A stretch of 63,125 bases of DNA, counting the filler, from Nemertoderma westbladi (lineage: Eukaryota; Animalia; Xenacoelomorpha): assembly GCA_032718475.1 (NCBI GenBank). It is 3 parts of 3 records of this genome, joined end to end, with 100 filler letters (N's around TTAATTAATTAA, not from the genome) between each part and the next. Parts side by side here need not be neighbours in the genome. Positions count along the whole stretch, not along the records: positions 21,140 to 50,468 come from JAUCBJ010008106.1; 2 more parts are not named here. One strand, given 5' to 3'. The notes beneath the pieces are model-generated. The model saw nothing but the letters and a program-made list of their open reading frames with translations. It did no database searches and was not told the DNA's origin. The position numbers were made by a program, and so were the translations under genes. This document shows positions 21,040 through 61,869 of the stretch, piece by piece. The number at the start of each line of letters is the position of its first letter. Within the stretch, counting starts at the first letter, position 1.

Positions 21040-21139
21040 NNNNNNNNNNNNNNNNNNNNNNNNNNNNNNNNNNNNNNNNNNNNTTAATTAATTAANNNNN
21101 NNNNNNNNNNNNNNNNNNNNNNNNNNNNNNNNNNNNNNN
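21040..21139. other. Assembly gap with TTAATTAATTAA linker
   Basis: N-run with a central palindromic six-frame-stop linker. Confidence 0.95.
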
Positions 21140-24100: not shown

Positions 24101-24200
24101 TACGCCCAGACCACACACTGGCAGCAACGCTGGGAGCCCTGCGACATTATCCAGAGTCGCCCAAATATATCGTCTCAAATTGTTATTAACACAATACAAA
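21140..24200 (-). mobile_element. CRE-clade non-LTR retrotransposon, decayed, 3' end lost in the gap
   Basis: N-terminal Cys cluster (CGCVRRGTACTSC). RT motifs GVRPIGISEVLYRL, GIEGAVHAM, LLVDA..FNSISR, SREGCTQGDP, WYTDD, GPRIGYNPEPTKS, LPVRHGSIGIRDP, GGWLTAQP, RDNLALRYG. Frameshifts and stops present. Confidence 0.82.
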
Positions 24201-24988
24201 AATAATTATAACATACAGATGTAAGTTGTTCACGGTATCTTATAGCCGCTGTAGGTACTTTCAGACTTTACAATCGTTATTTTATTGATTGCATAACTAC
24301 TGACTGACTGATTGAAGTCTTATGGTTATTGGTTTATGTATAACATTTATATTATCATTATATATTTAAGTGGTCTAACATCCATGTCGAATTAACATAA
24401 GAGTTTAAAAGGAGCAATGGATGGGTGGTGTATAGAAAAAACTCAGTTTCTTGCTATATTTGGTTACAAGTGAAAAAATCATTCATAGGAAGGGTAATTT
24501 AAGTACTGTATGTGTAGTTGTTATTCTAATCTACAAGAAATGCACCAATGTGAAAATAGTTAAAGGAAATTAATTAGGTACGAAATCAGGTGCAAATTTA
24601 AAAAATAGTTACAACAAGTGAAAAAAATAACATGAGAGGTAATTTAAGTATGTAAAAAAAATTAATAGGAGAGTTAATTTAAGTATATGTATTTTTTGTT
24701 GTTCTAATTTACAAAAAATGCACCAATGTGGAAATAGTTAAAGTAAATTAATTAGGTACAAAATCAGGTGCACATTCGAAAAAAAATTAGTTACAACAAG
24801 TGAAAAAATTAATAGGAGAGGTAATTTAAGTATATGTATTTTTGTTTTTATTTATTGTAAAAATACATATACTTAAATTACCTCTCCTATCCCGGAGTAA
24901 TCTGCGGCCTTCTTGTCTGCAAGACTGTAAGACTGTATGCTTTGGTACTGCTGTGTGACTGACTCACTGCTGTACTGCTGATCTTCTT

Positions 24989-25798
24989 ATGGATCCGGAT
25001 AAATTTAGCGCGCACCAAGAAGAAATCCTCAGACTATTCAGGAATGCCAAATTAAAAAAGAGTGTATCTAATGAAGATGAGAAACTAGTAACGGATAAAC
25101 TGATGGACATGTCGGCCATGTTCACCTCCTGTTTGGGTATGCTCGCAAATGCTCAACAGGAATCGATATCCTCGAAAGACAACCTGATAAAGCTCCAGTC
25201 TTCCAGATCCGTTACCCCGCCCCCACCTACCAGTACCTCGGTTTCATATGCAGATGCTGCAAGGCCTACCGGTAACACTCAGGGATTCCCACCCGGTACA
25301 CAAACATCTGTTCCCCCTCCAGGACCTCCTCGATATTATAGACCCCCAGGCACCGCGCCAGTTGCTCGCGGCGTTAAGGTCGGAGGCCCTCTTCACGCTG
25401 CACTGTCACCCCCACGTAATGCCCACATACATATCGGCAGGCTAGTACCGTCAAGAACTGCTGAAGATATCACATCGTATCTAACCGCTGAAGGAGTACC
25501 CTTTAGTGAAGTCAACCCTGTAACGTCGAGAATGGAAAACCCAACGTTTAATAGCTTTCACATTGTGTGCAACCAGTCCGATCGCGATCGAATCATGGAT
25601 CCCCTACTTTGGGATAGCGGAATAACCATCCGAAACTATCAATTACGCGGTGACGAACGTGCTCGGTATGGAGTCAGACCGCGAGAGAACGGGGATCTCG
25701 GCAACCAAATGTGGCCTCCTATGGGACAAATGGCACTTACTCATTCGGACTCTCATCTCAACGACTCAAATCAAACCCAACAACACAACCCCCAGTAG
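24989..25798 (+). CDS. LINE ORF1 (helical N-terminus plus RRM-like domain)
   Basis: SYADAA motif, then HIHIGRL...AEDITSYL...SFHIVC...IMDPLLWDSGITIRNY, typical of CR1/L2-group ORF1 C-termini. Confidence 0.75.
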   Translation: MDPDKFSAHQEEILRLFRNAKLKKSVSNEDEKLVTDKLMDMSAMFTSCLGMLANAQQESISSKDNLIKLQSSRSVTPPPPTSTSVSYADAARPTGNTQGFPPGTQTSVPPPGPPRYYRPPGTAPVARGVKVGGPLHAALSPPRNAHIHIGRLVPSRTAEDITSYLTAEGVPFSEVNPVTSRMENPTFNSFHIVCNQSDRDRIMDPLLWDSGITIRNYQLRGDERARYGVRPRENGDLGNQMWPPMGQMALTHSDSHLNDSNQTQQHNPQ

Positions 25799-28606
25799 GT
25801 ACGGGGCGCCTCCTCAACATTGTTCTCTGGAATGTTGAGGGCCTACAGTTTATTCGCGATAATGTCGATGACAATGAACTAAGCAGTAGTGCAGATGTTT
25901 TACTCTTCACCGAAACTCTATATTGTAAGTCAGAAATTGATTTTCCAAACTATTACTCATTTATCCAACCCGCGCTGAAACGCACCCGGGGTCGGCCGTC
26001 CGAAGGTATAATTATTCTATGCAAACTGTGTTTGAATCCATCTATCGTGTCTCTGGATCGGAATTACATAGCAATTAAAACAAATTCGGGATATTTTAGT
26101 GTGTTTTACTTTAACCCTGATACTGCGCTAGAAGATATAACTCTCTCTATAAACCGAGCAATCTCATTCGCTGACTACAGTAAACCTATAGTGGTGTCAG
26201 GCGATTTCAACTGTCGATTGGATAAGGGTAACCGTGGAGCATGTTTATCAGATAATTTAAATCAACTCGGTTTCTATTGTTTAAATGATCCATCTGCTCC
26301 TACCTACATTTCACCCCAGGGAGAAAGTGTAATAGATCTAGTGTTTATTCGTTACTCCTCGGTGGCTCCAAGCTGTCTACCACAGCTGCAAATCCACCTC
26401 AGTCCAATACGTAAACATCAGAGAGTCTCTGCAAACATATATCTTAATACAGACTCAAACCTTCAGATCCCCAGCAGGCCACATCGATATACACGAAAAA
26501 TTGATTCTGGTAAACTTTCTAACCATGCGAATCTTCAACTAGTGTTTGAAAATCTAGTAACTCATAGCGATATTAACACGGCCACACTACTTCTTAATGA
26601 TGCTATAACCGGGTCTTCCAATTTGATACACCCCCGAGTAACCCATGGGAAGCCATGGTTTGACGAAGAATGCCGAAATCAAAAATCTACATTAATGGCT
26701 GCTATGTTGTCTCGTCACGTTTCCACAGACGCTAACACACAGTTCTGGCATCTACGGAAGCAATACAAATCTCTAGTAAAAGATAAACGAAATGCCTACG
26801 ACAATGATAAACTATTGAAACTGATCGTCCGCATCGAAATTACTCCCTGGTCCCTTTTCAAGCAGAAACATAAACCGTCGATTGCTCCCATTGATGCTAC
26901 ACGGCTCGAGGAACATTTTACGGACTTACTAGGAACTCCAAATGATCCTGAAGGAGTGGCTACTACCCCGGTTTCATCTGAACCCGAACGCGAGCTGGAC
27001 GGGTGGTTCAATGAACAGTTTACAGAATCGGAAATTCTAGAGACAATTACCGACCTACCAAACAACAAGGCGTGCGGACATGACGGCATATACTATGAGC
27101 ACATAAAACAGGGGATTCCACAAATTTTATCATTAATAACTCTACTCTATAACGTCTGCTTTGATATTGGGAAATTGCCTTCAATCTGGAAAAATAGCGT
27201 GATAAATATTCTTTATAAAGGTAAGGGGAAAATCACGGACCCCGACAACTACCGCGGGATAGCTCTTCTGTGTGTTCTTCTGAAAATTCTCACGTCGACT
27301 ATTAACAAGCGAATACGCAGCGCTCTCGCTAACTTCATTCCACTCGAACAGTTTGGTTTTGTCCCTCAACGATCTACAATACATGCTATATCGAAGTTAC
27401 TTCAGGACATTAAAACAGCCTTTAACTCGCCCACTAGACAATCAAGAATAACATATGCATTATTTGTTGATTTCCGGAAGGCGTTTGACCTTTTAAGCCG
27501 TAAAGTATTACTAAACAAGCTCTACAACTTAGGTGTGAGGGGAAAGACCTTCGACATAATAAAGGAATTGTTATGTAATTATTTCCGCATCTTTGATGGT
27601 CTCTGTTACTCGAACCTCATTGAACAATTACGAGGGATTTTACAGGGGGACTGTCTGAGCCCCACCTGCTTTATTTTATTCATTGCCGACCTAGCAACGG
27701 CACTAATAAATGTAGCTAGCTGCCTTACTCAAATTCATATTCTATGCAGACGATTTGGTGATATACTCCAGTAACAGATGCGACGTCCAATCAGCTCTCG
27801 ATGTTATATCCAACTGGTGTAAATTAAACGGTATGGAAGTAAATTTATTGAAAACAAAGATTATTAAATTTCGCAAGGGCGGTCGATACAGCAAAGACGA
27901 CAAATTCACATATGGAAATAATATAGTCAAACTCGAGAATAAATACGAATACCTAGGAATTACGCTTCAGCCTTCATTATCATTCACACAGCATATTCAA
28001 TTAAAGAAAATAAAGGCATTTGGAATTATTGGCTCAATACAGCACCTCCGTTTATTATCAATTGACACTGCCATCAAAATTTTTAATACTAAAATAGAAC
28101 CTTTGGTAACATACGCGTTCACAGAAATCGGTCCTTATTTTACACTGGCACATTTAAAAGAAGTAGATAAAATAAAATCAGCATTCGCTAAATCAATGCT
28201 GGCCTTACACAAATCCGCATCTTCCACTATGGCACTAAAGCTTATTGATCAACAAATGTTTGTCGAGTGCATTCTAGAACGCAACCCAAATACCTTCAAT
28301 CGAAACGCAATCTCATTATACAGAGTACACCGAGAGGAACGCGAATTAAATTTCATCCAAGAAGGTTTTATAAACGGACCCGCTTTCACCTCGGACATAT
28401 GGAAACGCCAAAACCAGAAAAACCGACACGTTGTAACTCGGACAACTTCCCATGGTTTTCATTTTAAACTCTGCACCGATCAAACTCCTTTTCACCCGCT
28501 GTCACAGAACTGCGTCTGCCGATTCTGCCAGCACTCATGCTCGGACCGCTATCACTGTCTTTCATGTACACTTTGTCCACCCTTATCAACCTTAGCACAA
28601 CCATAA
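25711..28606 (+). pseudogene. LINE ORF2 (APE endonuclease, RT, Cys/His C-terminus) with one frameshift
   Basis: WNVEGL, FTET, SGDFN, PTY...SVIDL; FVDFRKAFD, GILQGDCLSP. FYADDL lies in the next frame (shift at ~27700-27740). YEYLG and CRFC...DRYHCLSC follow. Confidence 0.85.
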
Positions 28607-29202
28607 TAAATCAATATAAGGCCTAACTAAACTGTACTGTATCGACTTCAATAATTACCATGTTATTTCGGTGTATATAATATTATTATGGTATTTAATT
28701 AAAATTAATTAATATACAGTCATTTTACCCCGACTGGGGTGTAGTTATTAAAAAAAAAAAAATTTTTTTACATACTTATATTACCTTCTCCTATTAATTT
28801 TTTCACTTGTTGTAACTAATTTTTTCACTTGTTGTAACTATTTTTAGAATGTGCACCTGATTTTGTACCTAATTAATTTACTTTAACTATTTTCACATTG
28901 GTGCATTTTTTTGTAAATTAGAACAACAAAATTACATATACTTAAATTACCTCTCACATTAATTTTTTCACTTGTAAGTATTTTTTCCAAATTTGCACCT
29001 GATTCTGTACCTAATTAATTTCCTTTAACAATTTTCACATTGGTGCATTTCTTGTAGATTAGAACAACAACAACACATACAGTACTTAAATTACCCTTCC
29101 TATGAATGATTTTTGCACTTGTAATTATTTTTCGAATTTGCAGGTACTTTAAATATTTTTACATTGGTGCATTTTTTGTAAATTTGCACACTTTTGTTCC
29201 AG

Positions 29203-32200
29203 TAACTGTACAAGCTCTATAGTTCCACTAACTGTACAAACTCTATAGTTCCACTAACTGTACAAACTCTATAGTTCTACTAACCCTTCCAAATCTATAG
29301 TTCCTCTAACTGTACAAACTCTATAGTTCCACTAACTGTACAAACTCCATAGTTCCACTAACTTTACAAACTCTATAGTTCCACTAACTGTACAAACTCT
29401 ATAGTTCCACTAACTGTACAAACTCTATAGTTCCACTAACTGTACAAACTCTATAGTTCCACTAACTGTACAAACTCTATAGTTCCACCAACTGTACAAA
29501 ATCTATAGATCCACTAACTTTACAAACTCTATAGTTCCACTAACTGTACAAACTCTATAGTTCTACTAACCCTTCCAAATCTATAGTTCCTCTAACTGTA
29601 CAAACTCTATAGTTCCACTAACTGTACAAACTCTATAGTTCCACTAAATGTACAAACTCTATAGTTCCACTAACTAAATGTACAAACTCTATAGTTCCAC
29701 CAACTGTACAAAATCTATAGATCCACTAACTTTACAAACTCTATAGTTCCACTAACTGTACAAACTCTATAGTTCTACTAACTGTACAAACTCTATAGTT
29801 CCACTAACTGTACAAACTCTATAGTTCCACTAACTGTACAAACTCTATAGTTCCACTAACTTTACAAACTCTATAGTTCCACTAACTGTACAAACTCTAT
29901 AGTTCCACTAACTGTACAAACTCTATAGTTCCACTAACCCTTCCAAATCTATAGTTCCTCTAACTGTACAAACTCTATAGTTCCACTAACTGTACAAACT
30001 CCATAGTTCCACTAACTTTACAAACTCTATAGTTCCATTAACTGTACAAACTCTATAGTTCCACTAACTGTACAAACTCTATAGTTCCACTAACTGTACA
30101 AACTCTATAGTTCCACTAACTGTACAAACTCTATTGTTCCACTAACTGTACAAACTCTATAGTTCCACTAACTGCACAAACTCTATAGTTCCACTAACTG
30201 TACAAACTCTATAGTTCCACTAACTGTACAAACTCTATAGTTCCACTAACTGTACAAACTCTATAGTTCCACTAACTGTACAAACTCTATAGTTCCACTA
30301 ACCTTACAAACTCTATAGTTCCACTAACTGTACAAACTCTATAGTTCCACTAACTGTACAAACTCTATTGTTCCACTAACTGTACAAACTCTATAGTTCC
30401 ACTAACTGCACAAACTCTATAGTTCCACTAACTGTACAAACTCTATAGTTCCACTAACTGTACAAACTCTATAGTTCCACTAACTGTACAAACTCTATTG
30501 TTCCACTAACTGTACAAACTCTATAGTTCCACTAACTGCACAAACTCTATAGTTCCACTAACTGTACAAACTCTACAGTTCCACTAACTGTGCAAACTCT
30601 ATAGTTCCACTAACTGTACAAACTCTATAGTTCCCCTAACTGCACAAACTCTATAGTTCCACTAACCTTACAAACTCTATAGTTCCACTAACTGTACAAA
30701 CTCTATAGTTCTACTAACCCTTCCAAATCGATAGTTCCACTAACTGTACAAACTCTATAGTTCCACTAACTGTACAAACTCTATAGTTCCACTAACTGTA
30801 CAAACTCTATAGTTCCACTAACTGTACAAACTCTATAGTTCCACTAACTGTACAAACTCCATAGTTCCACTAACTGTACAAACTCTATAGTTCCACTAAC
30901 TGTACAAACTCTATTGTTCCACTAACTGTACAAACTCTATAGTTCCACTAACTGCACAAACTCTATAGTTCCACTAACTGTACAAACTCTATAGTTCCAC
31001 TAACTGTGAAAAACTCTATAGTTCCACTAACTGTACAAACTCTATAGTTCCCCTAACTGCACAAACTCTATAGTTCCACTAACCTTACAAACTCTATAGT
31101 TCCACTAACTGTACAAACTCTATAGTTCTACTAACCCTTCCAAATCGATAGTTCCACTAACTGTACAAACTCTATAGTTCCACTAACTGTACAAACTCTA
31201 TAGTTCCACTAACTGTACAAACTCTATAGTTCCACTAACTGTACAAACTCTATAGTTCCACTAACTGTACAAACTCCATAGTTCCACTAACTGTACAAAC
31301 TCTATAGTTCCACTAACTGTACAAACTCTATAGTTCCACTAACTGTACAAACTCTATAGTTCCACTAACTGTACAAACTCTATAGTTCCACTAACTGTAC
31401 AAACTCTATAGTTCCACTAACTGTACAAACTCTATAGTTCCACTAACTGTACAAACTCTATAGTTCCACTAACTGTACAAACTCTATAGTTCCACTAACT
31501 GAACAAACTCTATAGTTCCACTAACTGCACAAACTCTATAGTTCCACTAACCTTACAAACTCTATAGTTCCACTAACTGTACAAACTCTATAGTTCTACT
31601 AACCCTTCCAAATCTATAGTTCCACTAACTGTACAAACTCTATAGTTCCACCAACTGTACAAAATCTATAGATCCACTAACTGTACAAACTCTATAGTTC
31701 CACTAACTGTACAAACTCTATAGTTCTACTAACCCTTCCAATCTATAGTTCCTCTAACTGTACAAACTCTATAGTTCCACTAAACTGTACAAACTCTATA
31801 GTTCCACTAAACTGTACAAACTCTATTGTTCCACTAAACTGTACAAACTCTATTGTTCCACTAACTGTACAAACTCTATAGTTCCTCTAACTGTACAAAC
31901 TCTATAGTTCCACTAAACTGTACAAACTCTATAGTTCCACTAACTGTACAAACTCTATAGTTCCACTAACTGTACAAACTCTATAGTTCCACTAACTGTA
32001 CAAACTCTTTAGTTCCACTAACTGTACAAACTCTTTAGTTCCACTAACTGTACAAACTCCATAGTTCCACTAACTTTACAAACTCTATAGTTCCACTAAC
32101 TGTACAAACTCTATTGTTCCACTAACTGTACAAACTCTATAGTTCCACTAACTGTACAAACTCTTTAGTTCCACTAACTGTACAAACTCCATAGTTCCAC

Positions 32201-36659: not shown

Positions 36660-39425
36660 ATGAGGGGTGACGTCATTGGTGAACCGATGAAAATATTATT
36701 GCAAGATAATTTTGTACCGTATGCTGTCCATGCGGCCCGGAAAATTCCTTTCGCTAAAAGAGAGGAAGTTAAGGCCGAAATAGATACTTTGGTGGCAAAG
36801 GGAATAATTGAAGCTGTAGGAGATCGTCCTACAGCATGGTGCCACCCACTCGTTGTGGCTAATAAACATGATGGCAGCCTTAGAATCTGTGTCGATTTGA
36901 CTAATTTAAATCGTCAAGTAAAAAGAGTTGTTCACCCCAGTACCTCTCCCAGTGAGGTACTGGCCGAAATCCCTCCAGATTGCAATTATTTTAGCACCCT
37001 GGATGCCAAAACGGCGTATTGGCAGATCCCCTTGGCCCCAGAGGCTTGTGACCTAACGTGTTTCATAACACCATGGGGTAGATTTGTGTATAACCGTGCC
37101 CCCATGGGTTACATTAGCACGGGCGATGCGTATAATTTGCGTATTGATATGGCATTAACAGGTTTAACTGAAGAAACCTATAGACTAGTAGACGGCATGG
37201 TTCTGGCTAGTAGTAATTTTAAAACTCACATAAATTTAGTATGTGATATTCTAGAACGATGCACAAAATTTGATATTACAATAAATCCAAAGAAATTCAA
37301 GTTGGGGCATGATGAAGTGAAATTCGGTGGTTATTTAATATCGGCTAATGGTATAAAAGCCGACCCTGACAAGGTCAGTGCTATAGCAGACTTCCCATCC
37401 CCTACTAATAGGATGGAGCTCAGATCTTTCTTAGGTTTAGTTCAACAGCTATCACAATTTACTCCAAAAATTAGTGCAATGGCTAGTCCACTACGTGATA
37501 TATTGAAAGTAAAGAATGTGTTTATTTGGACCCCGGTGCACGAGATTGCTTTCAAAAACGTTAAGTTAGCTCTTGTGACACCCCCTGTGTTAGCGAATTT
37601 TGATAAAACGGCAGAGATTAAACTGGAAACGGACGCCGCAAAGAAAAATGGCGGTCTAGGTTTTTCGCTTTTGCAAAAACGTAAAACAGATGACGACTTT
37701 AGATTGGTCCAATGCGGGTCCCGATTTTTGCGAGATTGCGAGACTCGATATGCTGTTATTGAACTTGAATGTCTTGGGATACAATGGGCAATAAACAAAT
37801 GTCGGTTGTATCTACAGGGTTTACAGCATTTTACTGTGGTAGTAGACCACTGCCCTTTACTTCCTATTATGAATAAATACACCTACGACATGATCGACAA
37901 TGTTAGAATATTGAACTACAAAATGAAATTGTCTGCTTACAATTATACTCTTGAGTGGAAAAAAGGCAAAGATAATTGTATTGCAGATGCATTATCCAGG
38001 GCCCCAGTTTTCGACCCACACAGTGATGACGTCGACGATGACGAATTCCCAGTAGATGTGGCCGCAGCTGTGTTTCAAACAGCTGTTGACAACATTAATG
38101 ATGAATTTTCCAAACCAAAGAAAGAAAATAAATATTATAAAGACCCAATTCTAGAACAATTAAAGATTGTTGCTAGAGAGGATAGTGATTATCAAGTATT
38201 GATAAATGCGATTGAGAAAGATTTTCAAACACCTGAAAGTGATAATTGTTTCGTGCAGCAAGTAAAAAAAATGTGGAGTGAGTTATCAGTTGAGGACGGC
38301 CTGGTCCTTAAAGGTCAACGTATAATAATTCCAAAGGCTGCTAGGGCTGATGTTTTGAAACGCCTACATTCCTCTCATCAGGGAATAGAGCGTACGAAAC
38401 GACGGGCGCGACAATCGGTTTATTGGCCCGGAATTGATAATGAAATCAAACAAACTGTAGAATCATGTGAAAATTGTCAATATTGGTTGCCTAGCAACGT
38501 CAAAGAGCCCTTAGTATCAGAGCCTATCCCCTCCAGAATTTTTGAGTCCGTTTCAGCGGATCTATTTTACTTCGGGGGTAAAACGTATCTAGCCTATGTC
38601 GATAGGCTATCAGGCTTTCCATTTGTCACGCAATGGCGTGATGATCCTACTTCTTCGCAGGTTGTGACGAAGATTCGTGATTATTTTATATTAACGGGAG
38701 TACCTGTCCGTATACGGACAGATGGCGGGCCTCAATTTGACTCGAAAGTTTTCCGAGATTTTCTTTCACGTTGGAATGTGGAATTGGTACTATCCTCTCC
38801 CGAATATAGTCAATCAAATGGCCACGCCGAAGTAACGGTGCGGATATTAAAGCAACTTGTCGGAAAGGCCGATGCTGGAAGAATCGATACCGACAAATTC
38901 CTCCAAGCACTATTAGAACTTAGGAATACCCCACGGGAGGACGGCCGTTCTCCTAGTGAAATCGTATATGGTCATCCAATGCGATCCAGCGTGCCAATGC
39001 ACCACCGTGCCTTCGATAAAAATTGGCAGGTAAATGCTGACAAAGCAGACGAAACTGCATGGCGGGCGTCGAAGTTTGCCAAACTTCGTTATGATCGCAC
39101 GGCAAGAACTCTATCAGAACTTGAGGTTGGGACTAATGTCCTTATTCAAAACAAACGGTCAAAACGATGGTCGAGGACTGGTGTGATAGTGGAGAAGGGA
39201 CAACACCGGGACTATCAAGTCAAACTCCCATCCGGTCGCATATTACGCCGCAACCGTCGTTTCTTGCGTCGCCGAGTCGAATCAGCGATTCCTTCACATC
39301 ACGAGATACTCACACCTCCAGATCCAGTATCACCTGTAAAACGTGTTAATACTCGTTCGATTCTTAAACCTATTTTACGGCGCAGTTGCAGAGAGAGAAA
39401 ATCCGTGGTTAGATTCAAAGTTTAG
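36660..39425 (+). CDS. pol: Pol: RT, RNase H, integrase (RT catalytic DD reads DG)
   Basis: LRICVDLTNLN, STLDAKTAYWQIPL, LVDG; ETDA, ELE, DHCPL, ADALSR; HSSH...CENC; SADLF, TDGGPQF, NGHAE. Confidence 0.9.
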   Translation: MRGDVIGEPMKILLQDNFVPYAVHAARKIPFAKREEVKAEIDTLVAKGIIEAVGDRPTAWCHPLVVANKHDGSLRICVDLTNLNRQVKRVVHPSTSPSEVLAEIPPDCNYFSTLDAKTAYWQIPLAPEACDLTCFITPWGRFVYNRAPMGYISTGDAYNLRIDMALTGLTEETYRLVDGMVLASSNFKTHINLVCDILERCTKFDITINPKKFKLGHDEVKFGGYLISANGIKADPDKVSAIADFPSPTNRMELRSFLGLVQQLSQFTPKISAMASPLRDILKVKNVFIWTPVHEIAFKNVKLALVTPPVLANFDKTAEIKLETDAAKKNGGLGFSLLQKRKTDDDFRLVQCGSRFLRDCETRYAVIELECLGIQWAINKCRLYLQGLQHFTVVVDHCPLLPIMNKYTYDMIDNVRILNYKMKLSAYNYTLEWKKGKDNCIADALSRAPVFDPHSDDVDDDEFPVDVAAAVFQTAVDNINDEFSKPKKENKYYKDPILEQLKIVAREDSDYQVLINAIEKDFQTPESDNCFVQQVKKMWSELSVEDGLVLKGQRIIIPKAARADVLKRLHSSHQGIERTKRRARQSVYWPGIDNEIKQTVESCENCQYWLPSNVKEPLVSEPIPSRIFESVSADLFYFGGKTYLAYVDRLSGFPFVTQWRDDPTSSQVVTKIRDYFILTGVPVRIRTDGGPQFDSKVFRDFLSRWNVELVLSSPEYSQSNGHAEVTVRILKQLVGKADAGRIDTDKFLQALLELRNTPREDGRSPSEIVYGHPMRSSVPMHHRAFDKNWQVNADKADETAWRASKFAKLRYDRTARTLSELEVGTNVLIQNKRSKRWSRTGVIVEKGQHRDYQVKLPSGRILRRNRRFLRRRVESAIPSHHEILTPPDPVSPVKRVNTRSILKPILRRSCRERKSVVRFKV

Positions 39426-42147: not shown

Positions 42148-42724
42148 TCCTTTATAAAACTAACGTATAGAAGGTGTTTCCTTTATAAACTAACGTATAT
42201 AAGGTGTTTCCTTTATAAACTAACGTATAAAAGGTGTTTCCTTTATAAACTAACGTATATAAGGTGTTTCCTTTATAAACTAACGTATATAAGGTGTTTC
42301 CTTTATAAACTAACGTATAAAAGGTGTTTCCTTTATAAACTAACGTATAGAAGGTGTTTCCTTTATAAACTAACGTATAGAAGGTGTTTCCTTTATAAAC
42401 AAAACGTATATAAGGTGTTTCCTTTATAAACTAACGTATATAAGGTGTTTCCTTTATAAACTAACGTATAAAAGGTGTTTCCTTTATAAACTAACGTATA
42501 GAAGGTGTTTCCTTTATAAACTAACGTATATAAGGTGTTTCCTTTATAAACTAACGTATAGAAGGTGTTTCCTTTATAAACTTACGTATAGAAGGTGTTT
42601 CCTTTATAAACTAACATATATAAGGTGTTTCCTTTATAAACTAACGTATATAAGGTGTTTCCTTTATAAACTAACGTATATAAGATGTTTCCGTTATAAA
42701 CTAACGTATAGAAAGTGTTTCCTT
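42148..42724. repeat. 30-bp tandem repeat CTTTATAAACTAACGTATA(G/T/A)AAGGTGTTTC, ~19 copies
   Basis: Direct tandem array within the putative U3. Confidence 0.95.
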
Positions 42725-43119
42725 TTGTTGCCGTTATCCCTACACCAGGGGGGAAAAACGCCGATGCTGGAGACATGACTTAACAGACCACCGAGCCCCG
42801 GCCAGTCACCGGATATTGATTGTGGGGAGGGAATATTTTCTGAGATGCAGGGTTGCGGTTGAGAAAAAGCTGCATTAGTTGGATATACTATTTAATGTAA
42901 CTGAACTCTGTTGAACCTTGTTCAACAATATTGAACCTTGATTAAGAATAATTTTGGGCTTCCCCAAATCAATATACACCAAATATTCACAATAATTATA
43001 CACGATAATATAAATCCCTACGGTATATTATTTAATAACCCACTGTTCGCTCAGAATTTTAGCCTACCTAATGTTCCCAGATTTTCCCTCAGTCCCAGTC
43101 TTAGTGCCGTAGTGTCGGT

Positions 43120-43935
43120 GTCGGTCGACCCTGTCGCGTGTCCGTTCCACCCCTCACGAACCCCGAAGGGAACGATCATCGAGAACCAGCACGGCTTGGC
43201 TAATGGTCGGTCCAGTCGGTAGACTCTGTCGCGTATCCGTACCACCCCTCTCGAACCCCGAAGGGTTCGGTCATCGAGAACCAGTACGGCTTGGCTAGGA
43301 GTCTGTCGTGTCGGTGGACCCGTTCGCGTGTCCGTTCCACCCCTCACGAACCCCGAAGGGTTCGATCATCGAGAACCAGAACGGCTTGGCTAGGGGTCCG
43401 TCGGTTCATCACAGAAACCCAACCACCTAGGCTTTCCGAGTCCGTTTCAGGCTCGTAGTCGCTTCGGCAGCCGAGAAACTGCTCCGAACAGTCGGTAGGC
43501 CAGTAGAGTCTAGTCGAGTCTAGTCCTTTGTCTTTCGACCCCGTCGCAAATCCCAGTACAAGCAGTCAGCGTTCCGAGTTCTTTTCAGTCTCGTAGTAGC
43601 TGCCGTTGACCAGAGACCGCTAAGGGCAGTTCTCGTCAAACCCGTCTTGTGGCCAGCCCTTTCGCATGTCCGTCCCACCCCTCGCGAACCCCGAAGGGAT
43701 CGGTCATCGAGAACCAGTACGGCTTAGGTCAGGGGGCAGTCGTTAGTTGGCCGCCCGTTCGCGTGTCCGCTCCACCCCTCACGAACCCCGGGGTTCGATC
43801 ATCGAGAACCAGAACGGCTTGGCTACTAAGGGGCCGTCGGTGCCCGTCGCAAATCCCTGACACAAGCAGTCAGCGGTCCGAGTTCTTTTCAGTCTCGTAA
43901 TGGCTGCTGTTGGCCAGGGACCGCTAAGGGCAGTC
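43120..43935 (-). ncRNA. Array of structured RNA hairpins: 5 type A (kink-turn, UUCG-capped), 2 type B, 1 type C
   Basis: Units of ~90 nt with compensatory base changes in their stems. G-U wobbles and the C(UUCG)G loop favour the minus (element-sense) strand. Confidence 0.65.
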
Positions 43936-44407
43936 CTTGTCCTTTAGGCCTGGCGCATTACCAAATCCACCCCTACAGGCAGCAGGAAGTTGGCCAGGGC
44001 CTAATAGTACTCAGGCTAACCTGAATACTGCTTGCATTTTCCATCCCCCCTGGCCCTTACAACTATGAAATTATTCCCGTACCCTGTAAGTTGCCCCAAA
44101 GTTCGCCCATAAATCGCCCCCAGTTTATTGAATGTGCCCAAAACCCATGGTCCCGCACCCAGTAGTAATATCGGAATAATCAATTTTAATAAAATACAAA
44201 AATATTCAACTCGCGTTATGTAAAGTTGAAATACCGCGAACAGTCCCCCCCAATGACCTTCGTGAAGTCTGTCGGTAGATTGAGTTTGCGTAGGTCATTC
44301 CCAATATAAAAAACCCAAATTTAATATTGCATAGTTTTTAATTAATTTGGCCTAGAGTTTGTATAAAAATAAATGTTCGATAAATGTTCCTGGAATATCC
44401 CAATCCA

Positions 44408-47008
44408 CTATTTCTTTTTCTGATACGCCTTTCGTCTCTTCGCCCGTCGACTCTCATCGATCGCTATGGCTGGTAGAGGAGCGTCAACATCCATCGTGAG
44501 TAACGCTTCGGCTTGTCTCCTGGCGGCTCTTCCTTTCGAAGGCATCGGGATCATGTCGGTTCGTCTTTCCAACTCGGAGTTGCGAGCCTCGAGGAACCAC
44601 TCTCCGTCACCGAACTCTTCTTTATATGAGTATAATTGTCTAATGACTTCGAATGGGCCGAATAATCCGGCGCTCAGTAGCAGATCCACGTAATGGAAAG
44701 GTAGCGTGGCCGTCGTGTGGAGGCGTTCCGGGAAGGAGAAATATCCGCGCGCCATCTCCTGCGCGATATTCCGAGCGTTTCTCCGAACCTTGGTCCTTAA
44801 GTGGCTGTTTGCGTATGTCTCAAACATGACCATATTGCCCATAGCGGTAACGTCTTTGGTTGGACATTTGATATAGCAGCGGGGGCTAGCGGAATGTCCA
44901 CGGAAACCGCACGTGGTGCAGAGGTTATAAAGGATCGGACAGACCGAAACGTCGTGGCCCGATATCGCGCAGTATGGGCAATAGAGTATCCCGAGGAGCT
45001 GGAGGCAAGAATCGGTAACCCGATTCCTTCTGCCGCGTGGGCACTGCTCCGAGCCGCAGTCGCCGCATACCTCCAACTGCATTTCTCGACCGGGGAATAT
45101 CGGAATCGGGACGCCGACGTAGTATTCGAGTCGTCGGTCGCTCTTCGGAATATTCTCGGTGGTCGGTAGCCCGCGGAATGCTAGGCTTTTGCGTAGTATG
45201 TTCTCGCTCCGATAACCCTCTTTGTGTCCCGCTGGTCTCAACTCGGATGACCGTTTCTGGCGGTGGATCCATTCAGTTTGCTCGGCGTACCAACGGGTTA
45301 GTCGCATAGGGTCCTGAGGAACGGCGGGTGTAGTAGCCACCGCTGGTCGGCGAAGAGGTGCCGGGGTTTTCGACGGAGGGATACCGAGGAGATCGTCGGG
45401 GGTCGGCGCATCGCTGGGGCCCTCCTCGACCAGTATCGCTGAGCGGGTCCGTTGTTGGCTGGTACTCGGAATCTCCGACGACCAATCTTCGCCGCCCGGG
45501 AAAGGATACGGGGATAACCGTTGGCATATGTCGCCGAAGTCGCTCAATGCAGCTGTAGTGGCTACCTCTCTCGCGGGGCTACCGGAGCCGCGTGGGGTGT
45601 AGACGCCTGCTCTCTTCATCGGTTCGGCCGAGGCAACCCGTTTGGCGGCCGGTCCGTACGCGGCCTCCGGCTCGAGTTGTCGCTTCGGGGTGGAGAGTAG
45701 AACACCCTCGTTTAGCCATATCTCTTCCCCTTCCGAAGAGATCAGAGGCTCCTCCGCACCGAGAAGCTCGGTAATCGTAGGGATATCGTAAGGTCCGCTC
45801 TCGTCCCAGGATTCGATAACGGCGGGCGTTTTCGATTCTCCCGGTGTAATGTTCTCGACCGCTTTAAACGCGTGGTTTATAACCTCATTCCAGTCGTAGT
45901 CGACGAAGGAAAGGGGAACCGCCGTGATGAGGTTATCTAGAGCCTTGCAGATAAACTTAGCGACGGTGTAGCATTCCATAACGACGTAGATATAGCTCCG
46001 TCGATCGGGATTCTCCCACCTTTGGTGTATCGTCCACTTCCGATCGACGTCCTTCCATCGACCCTCTCGCTCGCTCTTTATCTCTAATCCCGGGTATCCG
46101 CCGTATATTTTATTATAGTCCCGGAATTTCTGGGGTTTGAAGTCGATACCGCCGTTGAGCACAGCGAGGTAGCCGATCCCGGATTTCGTCGGTCTCACTT
46201 CTTGGAATCCTCGCATGAACTCGGCGAATCGTAACCAGGCTAGCAGCGTTTGAGTGTCGATGCAATGGCTAAGTGCGTTGAGGTCGTTTCGTCGGTTTCT
46301 TCCTGCGGGAGCGTTCGCGTAGTCGTTCCGGACGTCCGCCTTGATATCCGACCCGATTTTAATGACGTCGAAGTCGAAGAGGATCTTTTGGATATCCGGA
46401 GGCAGCAACCAGATCGCTCCGGCTGCCTGCACTTCCTGTCTGGGTGTCGGGAATATTCGGCACACCAGTACCAAACCGTCCAGGGTTCTGAGGACGACGA
46501 CTAAGGATCGACCGTATTCTTTCGCCCCGTACTTTTCCTGGTAGTCGTCGCGGTTTTGGATAATCGATACGCGTTCCTCTCGAAGCGTCGCCGTACACTC
46601 CGACAGGTTTCCCCAGTGGGCGAGGTACGTACTCTTGTCGTCGACGAAACTTTGACATCTCGCCAACATAATCGCTTTCGAGGTGGGCGTCGCGTTTCCC
46701 TCGTTGTCGTAGATCAAACATCGGGATCTGTAGACGCTCTGCCGGAACGTTTCCCAAAACGACGAATCGTCCCCTCCGGTTGCCTTTGCGTTCCGAGTTC
46801 TTTTCAGTCTCGTACTAGCATCGGCTAACCGGAGGGCTCGTAGATTCTTAGAATCCGGTCCCTCTCGCCCGGTGAATTTAACGTCTCGTACGTTCTCATT
46901 TAGCAGAGTGCTCCAATTTGTATCAAAGTCAGGGGATCCAGGTTGCGAATATTCCAGTAGATCTATCGTGTTACGTAATTCGCCGATAATTTGGCGATTT
47001 GGGTCCAT
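44408..47008 (-). CDS. 866-aa accessory protein: DEDDy (WRN/EXD/RNase D-like) 3'-5' exonuclease fold, disordered linker, CCHC zinc knuckles, basic tail
   Basis: Exo I-like LIYDNEG; SLVVVLRTLDGLVLVCRI; LPPDIQKILFDFDVIKIGSDIKAD (Exo II); CIDTQTL; KSGIGYLA; RWE...YIYVVME (Exo III, D to E). CPYCAISGHDVSVCP...CTTCGFRGH...C. C-terminal RRAKRRKAYQKKK. The ORF is uninterrupted. Confidence 0.7.
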   Translation of the reverse strand: MDPNRQIIGELRNTIDLLEYSQPGSPDFDTNWSTLLNENVRDVKFTGREGPDSKNLRALRLADASTRLKRTRNAKATGGDDSSFWETFRQSVYRSRCLIYDNEGNATPTSKAIMLARCQSFVDDKSTYLAHWGNLSECTATLREERVSIIQNRDDYQEKYGAKEYGRSLVVVLRTLDGLVLVCRIFPTPRQEVQAAGAIWLLPPDIQKILFDFDVIKIGSDIKADVRNDYANAPAGRNRRNDLNALSHCIDTQTLLAWLRFAEFMRGFQEVRPTKSGIGYLAVLNGGIDFKPQKFRDYNKIYGGYPGLEIKSEREGRWKDVDRKWTIHQRWENPDRRSYIYVVMECYTVAKFICKALDNLITAVPLSFVDYDWNEVINHAFKAVENITPGESKTPAVIESWDESGPYDIPTITELLGAEEPLISSEGEEIWLNEGVLLSTPKRQLEPEAAYGPAAKRVASAEPMKRAGVYTPRGSGSPAREVATTAALSDFGDICQRLSPYPFPGGEDWSSEIPSTSQQRTRSAILVEEGPSDAPTPDDLLGIPPSKTPAPLRRPAVATTPAVPQDPMRLTRWYAEQTEWIHRQKRSSELRPAGHKEGYRSENILRKSLAFRGLPTTENIPKSDRRLEYYVGVPIPIFPGREMQLEVCGDCGSEQCPRGRRNRVTDSCLQLLGILYCPYCAISGHDVSVCPILYNLCTTCGFRGHSASPRCYIKCPTKDVTAMGNMVMFETYANSHLRTKVRRNARNIAQEMARGYFSFPERLHTTATLPFHYVDLLLSAGLFGPFEVIRQLYSYKEEFGDGEWFLEARNSELERRTDMIPMPSKGRAARRQAEALLTMDVDAPLPAIAIDESRRAKRRKAYQKKK

Positions 47009-47549
47009 ATTTACGATTATATCCGTTACAAATTAGTTCAGTTAATTGTAAGTCCAGAAAGTCTGAAACTATAGCGATAGCAGAATAATTCAGTTTTTTT
47101 TTATTTAATTCAGTTTATTAATAACATTGCTATATAGGCATCTATCATCTTATTGCTAATACATTCAGCATTTACAGTTACTATAACTATACATTTATAT
47201 CCAACCAGTTTTTATGACTTTTTTGTCCTTTCTTTTTTCTGATTCTTTTCTTTGACCTTTTTTATACCTTTTTTTTGTCTTTTTTCATTTCATTATTATT
47301 TCATCTCATTTCATTTATTTCCACATATATTTCAACATTTAGTTCCACCATTTATTTCCACATTTATTTATTTCCACATCATCATTGGGTTTATAGCCCC
47401 CCGGCTATCATCATTGTTATAAGCGCAGCACCAGGGTGCGCATCATTTTATTTTCATCAGTATACGCGTCATCATTCAGGTTTATAGTAGAGTTGTCTGA
47501 TCCTTTTCATCGTTTCCAACTATATTCAATCATTTTCTTTGGTTAATCT

Positions 47550-47985
47550 TTGTCGTGGAAGGGGTGTTACGCAGCAATCTGGGATCTACAGCTGGACTCG
47601 TTACACCGCCTACGCCCCAAACTGCACACGTAACGGACAATGAAGACGCTGGGAGTGAAGTCACGTGGATGCACCAGGGACCCACCAGAATAACACTCCC
47701 AACAACATAAAGCTCAGTCGACGAAGTCATGTGGGATGGGGTTACGCAACATTCTGGGATCTACACCTGGACTCGTTACACCGCCTACGCCCCAAAATCC
47801 ACGCAACGGTCCCACCAGAATAACGCGACTGAGAAACATAAAACCCTCTATCGTCGAAGTCATGTGGATGCACCATGGACCCACCAGAATAACGGGATAG
47901 AGGGGGTGTTGCGCGGCAATCCGGGATCTACAGCTGGACTCGTTACACCGCCTACGCCCCGAACTGCGCACGCAACGGACAACAT
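47550..47985 (-). repeat. Three ~180-bp structured repeats between pol and the accessory ORF
   Basis: Shared core GGGATCTACA(G/C)CTGGACTCGTTACACCGCCTACGCCCC, enclosed by GTTRCG/CGYAAC stems. Confidence 0.75.
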
Positions 47986-48255
47986 AACATACTGCGATGA
48001 ATACAATGAATTCCACTTCAAATCTTTTCCATTTCCAATAATCCAATACCGTTGGTCCTGATGACCAAAATCAGGGTAAACAATACATAAACGACCCTGC
48101 GTCAGTCGAAACATCTGCAGGGTGATGCTGGACTCCACATAACACACGAGGAAACACAAATACCATTGCGTGGTTACAGTTGGTTTAAAGGGGGTCCATA
48201 ATTCGTTGTCGATAAATCACAGTTAAAAAGAGTTTGTCAACATGATGAGAAGGGT

Positions 48256-50468
48256 TTAAACACATTTGTCATTGTCACCGATGTCTGCAGCAGGATCCGT
48301 AGTAGGGAACTTATCACCTCTTGTAGAATCACCACTGTCATTGCCTTCAAGAAGGCACAGCTTCTGGATGGGGCGTTGGTAGTGGCCCGCTTTCGTTCGT
48401 ATCGTCACAGTCCTCGCAAGTCCGTCTTTGCTTGGGTGTATGGTCACGACCCGCGCCACAGGCCAGTGAACGCGGTCTTTGAGATCTTCTTTAACTAGTA
48501 CCATGTCGCCAACTGCGACGTTCCGGTAGGTGTTGTTCCATTTCCTCCTGGTCCGGAGGGTTATGAGGTATTCCTGGGCCCAAATTCTCCACAAATGCGC
48601 TGCCAACGCTTGGGCCTTTTTCCAGTTTGTATGTTTCGCGATCTCGTTGGGATCCGGGAACATGGTTTCCGGGAGGAGATGGGTTTTGGGTCTCCCCAGT
48701 AAGTGGTTAGGAGTGAGGGGTTCCAGGTCTGTGGGGTCGTCGCGGATAGGAACGATGGGTCGGTTGTTCAGGGTAGCCGTGATCTCGCAGAATGTTGTGC
48801 GGAGGGTGTCATGGGTTACCCGGGTATCGCCTAGAGCGACGCGCATGGATCGTTTCACTAGGTCGATCAGTTTCTCCCATACCCCGCTCGTATGGGGTGC
48901 TAAGGGGGTCTGGAAGTGCCACTGTATCTGGTGTTCCTTCCAGACTTGGCATGCGGTGTTATCGGTAAACCATCCCTCGATCGCCTCTCTAAGTTCTCTT
49001 TCTCCTCCCACAAAGTTTGTACCATTATCGGAATACATGTGGCGACATGTCCCGTTGTTCGCCACGAACCGACGCAGAGCATTGATGAATGCGTGTTGTG
49101 TCAGATTTACCCTGATATCTAGGTAAATTGCCCTAGACCTTAGGCAGGTGAAGATGGCTCCCCAGCATTTGATGTTGGATCGTCGTTCAATAACCGTGAA
49201 CGGTCCGAAACAGTCCACTCCGGTGACGTAGAATGGTGCGGAATCCGCTTGTAGACGGGTGGCTGGTAAGTCGGCCATCTTTTGGGTGATTGGTGGCGCT
49301 AGGTAACGTCTGCAGGTGAAGCAACGTTTCAACACTTTCCGGATCAGTGGCTGGATGTGGGTGATCCAATATCTTTGTCTTATATTAGCTATAATCCAAT
49401 TCTGTCCTGCGTGGTGGTTGTCCTCGTGACATTGTAGAATTAATAGCTTAGCTAGTGTCGACGTTCCGGGCAGAAGCGCCGGGTATTTAACCTCATATTC
49501 GACCGGGGCGTTTGCCATCCGGGTATTCAGTCGGATCAGTCCGTCCTCTCCCATCATTGGTCTCAGTTGGTAGACTGGGCTGTCCGGTTTCAACGTTTTG
49601 CCCGCACTAAGTTGTTCCCATTCATCGGGGAAACTTTCTTTCTGGACATATCTAACAATACACTTCTCCGCAATAATGAGTTCTTGTATATTCCGTTGAA
49701 CTATCGGTTTGTTGTTTTTCCACCGTAGGAAGTTGCGAAGGGTTATAACGTGATAGACGAGCCGTCTCATGGATGAAGTTCGCTCGATCAACCGATGTAA
49801 AGACGCCGCTAGTTGGGTGATCGTCGCGACGTTATAGTGCCTGCCCGAGTCCTTTGCAGGCTCAGTCAGACAACTATAAATTTCCACCGCGTTGCTTCGA
49901 TGGATTTTACGGATCTCTTTATCGTCCTCGGAGTATTTTCCGCTATCGAGCTCGGGGTCGAATCGGGTACTCCATGTTAATTGTGGCTGCCGTAGGAATT
50001 CCGGGCCTGTAAGCCAGAGTTTACTTTTACCGAGTTGTTTTGGGGTGGCGCCTCGGCTTGATAAGTCCGCTGGGTTTTCCTTCCCGTTCACGTGATGCCA
50101 CTGTTCTCGGCCGGTACACTGTTTAATCTCTGTGGCTCGGTTTGCAACAAACGTGGTGTGACGCCGTGATGGAGAGTGGAGATAATAGAGAACTATACTC
50201 GAATCTACCCAGAAGTGTTGAGATTCTATGGGGATCCGTAGGTTCCGCATGGCCATGCGATTCTGTCTTACTGCCCAAACTGCAGCTTGTAGCTCGAGCC
50301 TCGGAATCGTTGCTACGAATTCCCCGGATACTGTCTTTGCTTTGGAGAATAAGAAGCTTGTATCGCCGTTTCCATCGTTACTTAGTCTCCGCAAGAAGGT
50401 TACTACGCCGATTCCGGTATTCGAAGCATCCGAAAAGGTATGGAGCTGGAAGATATCGGTGGGCAGTT
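48256..50468 (-). CDS. pol: BEL/Pao pol, C-terminal part: RNase H and integrase
   Basis: FSDAS, TIPRLELQAA, FWVDS, FVANR, WHHVNGKENPADLSSRG; H...HHAG...CFTC; GVDCFGP, YSDNGTNFVG, GVWE; VAVGDMVLV...WPVARV...DGLARTV...RPIQKL. Confidence 0.93.
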
Positions 50469-50568
50469 NNNNNNNNNNNNNNNNNNNNNNNNNNNNNNNN
50501 NNNNNNNNNNNNTTAATTAATTAANNNNNNNNNNNNNNNNNNNNNNNNNNNNNNNNNNNNNNNNNNNN
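50469..50568. other. Assembly gap with TTAATTAATTAA linker
   Basis: Same format as 21040-21139. Confidence 0.95.
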
Positions 50569-60432: not shown

Positions 60433-60738
60433 ACTTGTTCAGGGAAGTTTGAATATGCAAAATTACAAATAATAGACAACAAAAATATAAAATTGGATGT
60501 GCAGTTATTCATAATTAGCACTGTTAAAGTACTGGTGTTGTTATATTTATATTTAATAAATTGTATGATTTATTATTATTCCCCCCAAAAAAAATATGTA
60601 ATAAAAAATTATACTCAGAATAAGGTGTAACAGAACAATATTAAAGTACAGTTGAATACGAAAATACGGTACCTAAATAAAGTAACCTAGTAACTTCATT
60701 ATCTAACTAACTAAAGCATTGGTTAAGTTTTGCTAACA

Positions 60739-61869
60739 ATGGATTGTTTTACTTTATCTACCAACAGCTTTGCTGTAGATGTTTACAAGGAGATTGTAAA
60801 TACCCGATCTGATTCCAACATTCTGATCAGTCCAATTAGTATAATTACAGTGCTATCAATGACATATGGGGGTGCTGCAGGGGAAACTAAAGAACAGATG
60901 AGAAGTGTTCTACATTACACGGGCCAAAATGATGATGACATACATAAAGCCATTCATTCATTACAAACTTATCTTTATAGAGATGATAAGCCATACACTC
61001 TCGATGGGGCTAATAAGTTGTTTGCGCAAGAAGATTTCCGATTTAAAGATGAATTTTTAGCGCTGACCAAAGAACAATACGGGTCAGAGTTAGAGAAAGT
61101 CAACTTTAAGACATCTTTCAATGAAGTTCGAATACAGATCAATAACTGGGTGGAATCCATGACGAAAGATCGAATAAAGGATCTCATTGGTGAGGATGTT
61201 CTCAATTCTCTGACCAGATTGGTTCTGGTAAATGCTTTGTATTTCAAAGGAGAATGGGTAACACAGTTTGATCCCAAGAAAACCTCCCAAGGAAAATTCA
61301 TTACCGAATCCAAAGGAGAGGTCGATGCGATGTTTATGTATATGACGGAAAAGTTTAATGTATTTCGTAGCAAAGAAGTCTATGCGTTGGAAATGCCATA
61401 CAAAGGAGAGGATCTGTCTATGGTATTTATATTGCTACATCGCGGAATTTCAGACATCGAAGCCAAACTGAGCAGCGAATGGTTAGCCGAGGTGTTCAAA
61501 GGGTTTAGGAAGATCGAATTAGATGTTCGTATCCCTAAGTTTAAACTGGAAGATTCTTTCAGTTTGAAGGATACGCTTTCAGCTATGGGGATGTCGAATC
61601 TGTTTTCGGAAGAGCTTTGCGATCTATCTGGAGTGACTGGCGCTAGAGATCTGTTTGTTAGTGCCGTTCTACATAAGACCTTTGTGGAGATTAACGAAGA
61701 GGGTTCTGAAGCTGCTGCTGCTACGGCTGCTGTTGCGACGATGCGCAGCGGAATGGTGACACCTCCTTTCGAACTCAATCGGCCTTTTCTTTTCGCTATT
61801 AGAGAAAAAACAGATGGCAATCTACTCTTCTTGGGTAAAGTTACCAACCCTGGTCCACTACAAACGTAA
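60739..61869 (+). CDS. Intracellular inhibitory serpin (clade B-like), 376 aa, P1-P1' Arg-Ser
   Basis: NILISPISI, GAAGET, INNWVESMT, LVLVNALYFKGEW, IPKFKLE; hinge EEGSEAAAAT, RCL AAVATMR-SG, FELNRPFLF. No signal peptide; single coding exon. Confidence 0.95.
   Translation: MDCFTLSTNSFAVDVYKEIVNTRSDSNILISPISIITVLSMTYGGAAGETKEQMRSVLHYTGQNDDDIHKAIHSLQTYLYRDDKPYTLDGANKLFAQEDFRFKDEFLALTKEQYGSELEKVNFKTSFNEVRIQINNWVESMTKDRIKDLIGEDVLNSLTRLVLVNALYFKGEWVTQFDPKKTSQGKFITESKGEVDAMFMYMTEKFNVFRSKEVYALEMPYKGEDLSMVFILLHRGISDIEAKLSSEWLAEVFKGFRKIELDVRIPKFKLEDSFSLKDTLSAMGMSNLFSEELCDLSGVTGARDLFVSAVLHKTFVEINEEGSEAAAATAAVATMRSGMVTPPFELNRPFLFAIREKTDGNLLFLGKVTNPGPLQT

Follow-up and report, generated by a model that had tools for sequence, protein, structure and literature searches.

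A 63,125-nt stretch of DNA from Nemertoderma westbladi (GCA_032718475.1; hereafter the window) contains a minus-strand BEL/Pao long terminal repeat (LTR) retrotransposon, in which one hairpin tip recurs five times: once in a linker of pol, once in the 5′ part of an accessory open reading frame (ORF) that we call ORF3, and three times in an array within the predicted LTR. The predicted stems beneath the five tips are long and differ in sequence. Since the apex is fixed on exchangeable stalks and is repeated in tolerant coding linkers as well as in the LTR, it reads as a recognition signal on RNA, and it is probably a functional RNA module.

The sequence-only reading had described a 27-nt apex shared between a 3′ array and the coding sequence of the accessory ORF. 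That repeat is real: the 27-mer is identical (27/27) at 43569–43595 and 46788–46814, is matched at 26/27 positions at 43873–43899, and at three or fewer mismatches had no match in 100 shuffles. The variant placed near 43434–43457 was recovered in register at 43431–43457 with four differences (23/27). As claimed, one copy lies within the coding sequence, spanning codons 65–74 of ORF 47008–44408, in an N-terminal protein stretch with little counterpart in relatives. The conserved unit, however, extends beyond the 27-nt motif to a 32-nt core, in which 25/32 columns are invariant across these four copies and pairwise identity is 25–31/32, the ORF copy and that of unit B1 agreeing at 31/32 positions. 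In the nearest flanks, the ORF copy is identical to the LTR copies at only 5–6/11 and 1–3/10 positions. Its stem is nevertheless not entirely unrelated, as first described: the layout of the lower internal loop is shared with the copy at 43431, although their flanks agree at just 6/11 and 3/10 positions. The in-ORF stem (46772–46781/46827–46836) was confirmed, with z −5.75 and none of 200 shuffles equally stable; among 63 windows along ORF3, none is more stable than the one with this hairpin. Long stems were predicted for the other copies too, but that of unit B0 is not significantly stable (z −1.34, 20/200 shuffles). A second stable predicted hairpin in ORF3, at 46406–46485 (z −3.4), lacks the motif.

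The four copies are predicted to share a core of 2 bp, a 5×4 internal loop and 4 bp, then a variable pair, a bulged A and a C–G pair, and finally UGAAA with one extruded base. We infer that the fold runs from a sarcin-ricin (S/R)-type loop through a 4-bp helix and past a bulged A to a UGHAA T-loop. At 46806–46816, the in-ORF loop presumably has a 5′ side similar to the beginning of the sarcin-ricin loop of rRNA. By sequence, 4/5 copies have the 5×4 loop with its A.G pair, its U.A pair and a permitted lower pair, and the pol copy lacks it; at the bulged-G position of the S/R base triple, the ORF copy has G, whereas B0 and B1 have C and B2 has U. Excerpts of PMC8450098 (this and the papers named below are cited from parts of their text) describe the motif as a 5×4 loop in which UC, CC and AG are among the lower pairs and bulged C or U are rare natural variants; the states found here fit such variants. 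A pentaloop on a closing pair, of the T-loop consensus YGNRA/UGHAA (bioRxiv 2022.12.26.521914), occurs in 5/5 window copies, the loops UGAAA and UGCAA both conforming to UGHAA, and the bulged A two pairs beneath the loop is likewise invariant (5/5).

In 6/6 units compared, the pol unit included, folding is better on the sense than on the antisense strand, with the in-ORF hairpin nearly equally stable on both. Together with the paired changes and the pol copy described below, this supports the earlier view of a conserved RNA apex on exchangeable stalks. A covariance-model scan of 42700–48300 against Rfam matched no family, self-cleaving ribozymes included (one match, E 8.3), and the exact degenerate motif had 0 matches in viral_contigs. 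Inspection by eye against consensus features led us to drop readings as an HDV-like, hammerhead or hairpin ribozyme, a SECIS element, a Pol III B-box or a T-box-like tRNA ruler. A match to a T-loop descriptor at 43414 lies within the 3′ arm of unit B0 and is put down to chance.

The earlier list of four copies was incomplete. An RNA model of these copies gave a weak match in pol (E 0.63), and the sequence pattern, loosened after that at loop position 3, then matched exactly five window sites, compared with none in 100 shuffles. A structure-only descriptor returned the identical five sense-strand sites and 0 antisense; for comparison, shuffled elements gave 0.10 matches each, and the rest of the window gave 5 in 110,584 nt. 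The fifth apex, at 49846–49863, differs at T-loop position 3; its 3-bp helix has the same sequence as in the other copies, though the descriptor does not require it. The copy carries its own stem (z −5.26) and is the sole pol window of 53 with z ≤ −3. The pol and ORF3 copies are read in different frames, and both fall in the least conserved protein stretches; in the pol protein comparison, 0–4/20 residues around the fifth copy match three relatives.

Variation among family copies was assessed from the best 40 of 460 variant places, which are the best-supported rows and not a random sample. Of these, 27 lie in ORF3, with 20/27 at third codon positions and 18 synonymous (p 2e-5), an excess which indicates that ORF3 is maintained as a protein. 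For 46680–46870, all 21 variant rows were covered; LTR contigs raise X1/X3 depth over the core two- to four-fold, so that ORF variants below 3% could be masked there. Changes at 46808 and 46799 occur jointly in X4 record 18 and X6 record 22, turning A.A into C–G and altering an arginine, and changes at 46825 and 46826 preserve the lower helix in a shifted register. Paired changes thus retain the in-ORF hairpin at the cost of amino-acid changes. X4 record 18 is probably a dead copy, because it carries four changes absent from X1 and X3, one of them a premature stop; of its core differences, three equal the B0 state, one gives G.U and one lies at T-loop position 5. The proposed deletion derivatives between ORF and LTR copies did not materialise as a clean junction among the 15 of 26 joints listed, which leaves the idea of a template-switch site unsupported beyond recombination among LTR units; joint 43601–46783 is compatible both with an LTR/ORF copy hybrid and with point variants.

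The host element belongs to BEL/Pao, its Pao-type RNase H (Peptidase_A17), integrase and DUF5641 following one another in the expected order; pol is interrupted by the assembly gap at 50469, and Gag, protease and the reverse transcriptase (RT) region would lie upstream of it. The array is indeed 3′ of the ORF, as first described, but sits inside a predicted 3′ LTR of 1,517 bp. This is the only LTR predicted in the window, which holds no target-site duplication either; it was recognised by TGTT...AACA, a G-tract and a depth step: TGTT at 44242 is preceded by the G-tract, AACA at 42726 adjoins a satellite whose match stops at 42725, and, as a hint only, summed contig depth roughly halves across the boundary (X1 57,700 to 28,200; X3 57,500 to 28,600). 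Given the placement of TCAGTT and ATTAAA, the array would correspond to U3, though AATAAA at 44129 permits an alternative. In the sense direction its units run B2-A5-A4-B1-B0-A3-A2-A1; unit number differs among family copies, and several of the listed joints skip units. The acceptor-like context ahead of ORF3 is clearer in a relative locus (L007).

Features of the BEL/Pao element in the window, with positions counted along the whole stretch
Feature	Position	Strand	Remarks
BEL/Pao pol, 3′ part	48256–50468	−	Peptidase_A17, integrase zinc finger, DUF5641; ends at assembly gap
Fifth copy in pol	49826–49882	−	apex 49846–49863, loop UGCAA, no S/R loop; variable RNase H–integrase linker
Unit C hairpins (three)	47560–47635, 47735–47812, 47905–47980	−	between pol and ORF3; 10-nt loop beginning UGUAA
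Possible splice acceptor before ORF3	47063–47069	−	putative; pyrimidine tract weak
ORF3, 866 aa	44408–47008	−	downstream of pol; DEDDy-exonuclease-like fold, Cys/His-rich domain, basic tail
In-ORF3 hairpin	46772–46836	−	core 46788–46819; 173–237 nt downstream of AUG
Polypurine-tract-like G run	44243–44251	−	directly before LTR; seen in the sequence
Predicted 3′ LTR, 1,517 bp	42726–44242	−	TGTT...AACA; far end adjoins 30-bp satellite
Unit B2	43843–43935	−	core 43873–43904; stem, S/R-type loop, T-loop apex
Unit A5	43745–43835	−	predicted k-turn hairpin, loop shortened
Unit A4	43648–43740	−	predicted k-turn hairpin
Unit B1	43538–43632	−	core 43569–43600; stem, S/R-type loop, T-loop apex
Unit B0	43408–43488	−	core 43431–43462; stem, S/R-type loop, T-loop apex
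Units A1–A3	43120–43212, 43215–43307, 43310–43402	−	predicted k-turn hairpins, cUUCGg loop
Inr-like TCAGTT, then ATTAAA	42891–42904	−	putative; TCAGTT at 42904, ATTAAA at 42896

The A units interspersed with the apex-bearing B units carry a second RNA signature. The sequence hallmark of a k-turn, a 3-nt bulge and then tandem G.A/A.G pairs with a helix on either side, occurs in 5/5 copies; position 3b.3n is U.U, C.A or C.C and never Watson–Crick, a position for which PMC4382518 gives a rule along with the binding of k-turns by L7Ae-family proteins. Unit A pairs hold in 94% of cells, and four invariant G.U pairs would function on sense RNA only. A pseudoknot in unit A, in competition with the predicted long stem, was dropped. 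Between pol and ORF3, a second array (47555–47982) alternates unit C hairpins with another repeat; two of its three long hairpins fit the relaxed T-loop descriptor, and the 3′ arm of the B apex is complementary to five of the loop bases. The link between unit C and the apex motif is weak.

ORF3 appears to belong to a BEL/Pao family of third ORFs that combine a DEDDy-exonuclease fold with a Cys/His domain. The family comprises seven distant relatives, at 30–35% identity over the matched parts, and nine loci, six of which (three related pairs) have BEL pol upstream; homolog searches of a 5.8-billion-sequence set returned no further relative, and a single-sequence search of the PDB was empty. One locus (L001) carries an ORF3-family gene without detected pol, flanked by direct and inverted repeats (7070–7484 and 9567–10182), and is perhaps a non-autonomous or fold-back element; a relative in L002 (79–2022, P0002) has a duplicated Cys/His domain. 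The N-terminal domain family profile matched EXD2 (E 2e-5) and Egalitarian (E 0.01); the evidence for a DnaQ-like fold is this EXD2 match and an Atlas lead (0.92), with no Pfam match and with structure models that are unreliable. The ExoI D-x-E, present in 6/6 relatives, is missing from the window ORF3, where about 20 residues are absent; in the X4 and X6 contigs across the site, gap letters are too few to make up the loss. Invariant Cys/His residues with CCHC-type spacing mark the C-terminal domain, whose Atlas match (<0.9) is a lead only, and basic residues account for 9 of the last 14 in the tail. ORF3 may be read, conditionally, as a nuclease-dead RNA binder made from spliced RNA.

We tentatively propose ORF3 itself as the reader, the apices serving as a dispersed response element, that is, a multi-copy candidate binding site of the Rec/RcRE or Egalitarian kind; the proposal is drawn by analogy, because Egalitarian shows that an exonuclease fold without nuclease activity can bind hairpins, and because an accessory protein paired with LTR RNA is the Rec/RcRE pattern. 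The tips would fold in the sense RNA of the element, and the array, if within U3, would lie in the 3′ untranslated region. By binding the tips, ORF3 would mark element RNAs to be exported, transported or protected. Through the in-ORF copy it would also control its own translation, while a host L7Ae-family protein would be brought in by the k-turn units. The full circuit, in the style of a complex retrovirus, in which a de-catalysed DEDDy exonuclease with a zinc domain reads S/R plus T-loop modules along its own RNA while a k-turn array recruits the host protein, is a speculative possibility to which we attach low confidence.

Several observations weigh against this interpretation. The evidence consists of sequence signatures and predicted folds, and both AlphaFold2 models of ORF3 are unreliable (pLDDT 34 and 42). 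The pol copy has no S/R loop and was matched only after the pattern had been relaxed. Just 1/36 fixed 80-nt LTR windows reaches z ≤ −3, the fold of the entire array re-pairs several units, and covariation in unit A is not above shuffles (302/500). Outer-stem pairs are lost through the changes at 46772, 46777 and 46835, and an LTR-type contig with C.A at the variable pair suggests, from depth sums, that the pair is not obligatory. The expected suppression of variation failed to appear in the raw count for one divergent copy, X4 record 18, which differs at 5/32 core and 18/132 other positions (p 0.78; 20 of 23 differences listed), and whose private change at T-loop position 5 deviates from the consensus. 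Nor did conservation in related elements hold: two RNA models had no match in the nine distant ORF3-family loci (L001–L009, 80,885 nt; best E 1.4 and 2.8), several of which end near ORF3, so that across these nine loci the motif appears family-specific. An apex look-alike in L003 is ascribed to chance, since it is not kept in L008, its 77% relative. Finally, T-loops mostly engage RNA receptors (bioRxiv 2022.12.26.521914).

The combined T-loop and sarcin-ricin signatures make RNA–RNA docking a serious rival and the main one, though less likely than recognition by ORF3. On this account, each T-loop would accept an adenosine from another hairpin, and the pol, ORF3 and LTR copies would loop, compact or dimerise the genomic RNA while the k-turn units bend the 3′ array. 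In nearly all T-loops a receptor base intercalates between positions 4 and 5, and FMN riboswitches offer a precedent in a UGAAA T-loop that docks onto a UGAAA-type receptor loop (bioRxiv 2022.12.26.521914); the invariant bulged A and the shortest LTR seen (X6 record 26), which retains one B and one A unit, also speak for docking. No receptor was identified, however, although one is described as YNANA (bioRxiv 2022.12.26.521914), and the loop complement is absent from the sense strand of 42726–50468. Moreover, described riboswitch T-loops extrude two bases where the apices here extrude one, and there is no A-type unit close to the coding copies.

Slightly less likely is that the tips are dispersed sites for Gag, in packaging, or for a host protein acting as an export, localisation or translation factor, with ORF3 having no part in their recognition. 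If ORF3 is translated from spliced RNA, the pol copy would be confined to genomic RNA; yet 4/5 copies would also be on the spliced ORF3 RNA and would discriminate poorly for packaging, and Gag lies outside the window. Ribosomal proteins contact many T-loops (bioRxiv 2022.12.26.521914), and L7Ae-family host proteins bind k-turns.

It is improbable that only the LTR array matters, or nothing at all, the coding copies being leftovers of duplication or template-switch conversion in tolerant linkers. The near identity of the ORF copy to B1, the many joints between array units with their implication of frequent recombination, the lack of raw suppression of variation and the absence of the motif from distant relatives all favour this account, and tandem repeats are known from Pao LTRs (Xiong et al. 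1993, by its title in the references of PMC554778). Against it, a separate long stem is centred around each coding apex (z about −5), which is unexpected if the apex alone was copied, and the paired changes preserve structure at an amino-acid cost.

A role of the repeats at the DNA level, as enhancer or transactivator sites in U3 and within genes, is very improbable: U3 tandem repeats are often enhancers and an exact 27-mer could be a factor site, but folding is strand-specific, the G.U pairs of unit A work in sense RNA alone, and k-turn, S/R and UUCG are RNA motifs.

The proposed pairing of ORF3 with the apices recalls Rec/RcRE of HERV-K, Rev/RRE and Rex/RxRE, in which an accessory protein is matched to a structured RNA element in the LTR or coding region, the RcRE being positioned in U3–R. 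Rec binds RcRE, which is found in HERV-K LTRs (PMC6916052). Unlike these proteins, with which it shares no homology, ORF3 is large and multi-domain and its candidate sites are dispersed; the response-element role is an analogy only. The exonuclease-homology domain of Egalitarian binds the bulged hairpins of Egalitarian–BicD localisation signals without its catalytic residues (PMC13186709). The ORF3 profile matches Egalitarian weakly. No LOTUS-like domains were seen in ORF3, however, and whereas those signals have no overt sequence pattern and tolerate loop variation, the apex here is fixed in sequence. Rotifer Juno and Vesta LTR elements and Athena retroelements also have an extra DEDDy-type ORF after pol (PMC5408684), but their catalytic residues are reported intact and the word ‘hairpin’ is absent from the main text of that paper; the present element is BEL/Pao, and its ORF3 adds a Cys/His domain and is without ExoI.

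Relative to BEL/Pao (Belpaoviridae), the element conforms in Peptidase_A17, integrase zinc finger, DUF5641, the TG...CA end of the predicted LTR and the purine tract, and shares tandem LTR repeats with Bombyx Pao (from the title listed in PMC554778). It differs in its LTR of 1.5 kb, compared with 0.2–1.2 kb in PMC3118150, in a third ORF with an exonuclease fold in place of env, the sole extra BEL/Pao gene mentioned in that source, and in repeats that fit non-canonical RNA motifs. Those repeats fit the sequence signatures of the T-loop, sarcin-ricin and k-turn motifs of riboswitches, T-boxes and rRNA, but here they recur in a retrotransposon and matched no Rfam family. A literature search, mainly of open papers and of main texts without supplements, found no BEL/Pao exonuclease ORF3, no cis-acting RNA signals of BEL/Pao and no T-loop or k-turn arrays in LTR elements.

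Elsewhere in the window, 856-bp perfect inverted repeats flank a 659-aa ORF (6521–8500) without Pfam match at 3981–11969, likely a DNA transposon; 21140–24400 is GC-rich with many overlapping ORFs and unrelated to ORF3 or pol by tblastn; and a LINE-type endonuclease/RT (24989–28606), a gypsy-type pol (36660–39425), a serpin ORF (60730–61869) and 26-bp and 30-bp satellites (near 29000–32000 and 42150–42725) are also present. The N gaps at 21040–21139 and 50469–50568, each divided by a 12-bp spacer, are assembly artefacts.

T-loop, sarcin-ricin and k-turn modules are best known from rRNA and riboswitches. If the interpretation proposed here is true, a retrotransposon would deploy T-loops, sarcin-ricin-type loops and k-turns as repeated signals in its coding sequence and LTR, and ORF3 with its apices would provide a small, directly testable protein–RNA pair for the role of retroelement DEDDy ORF3 proteins.

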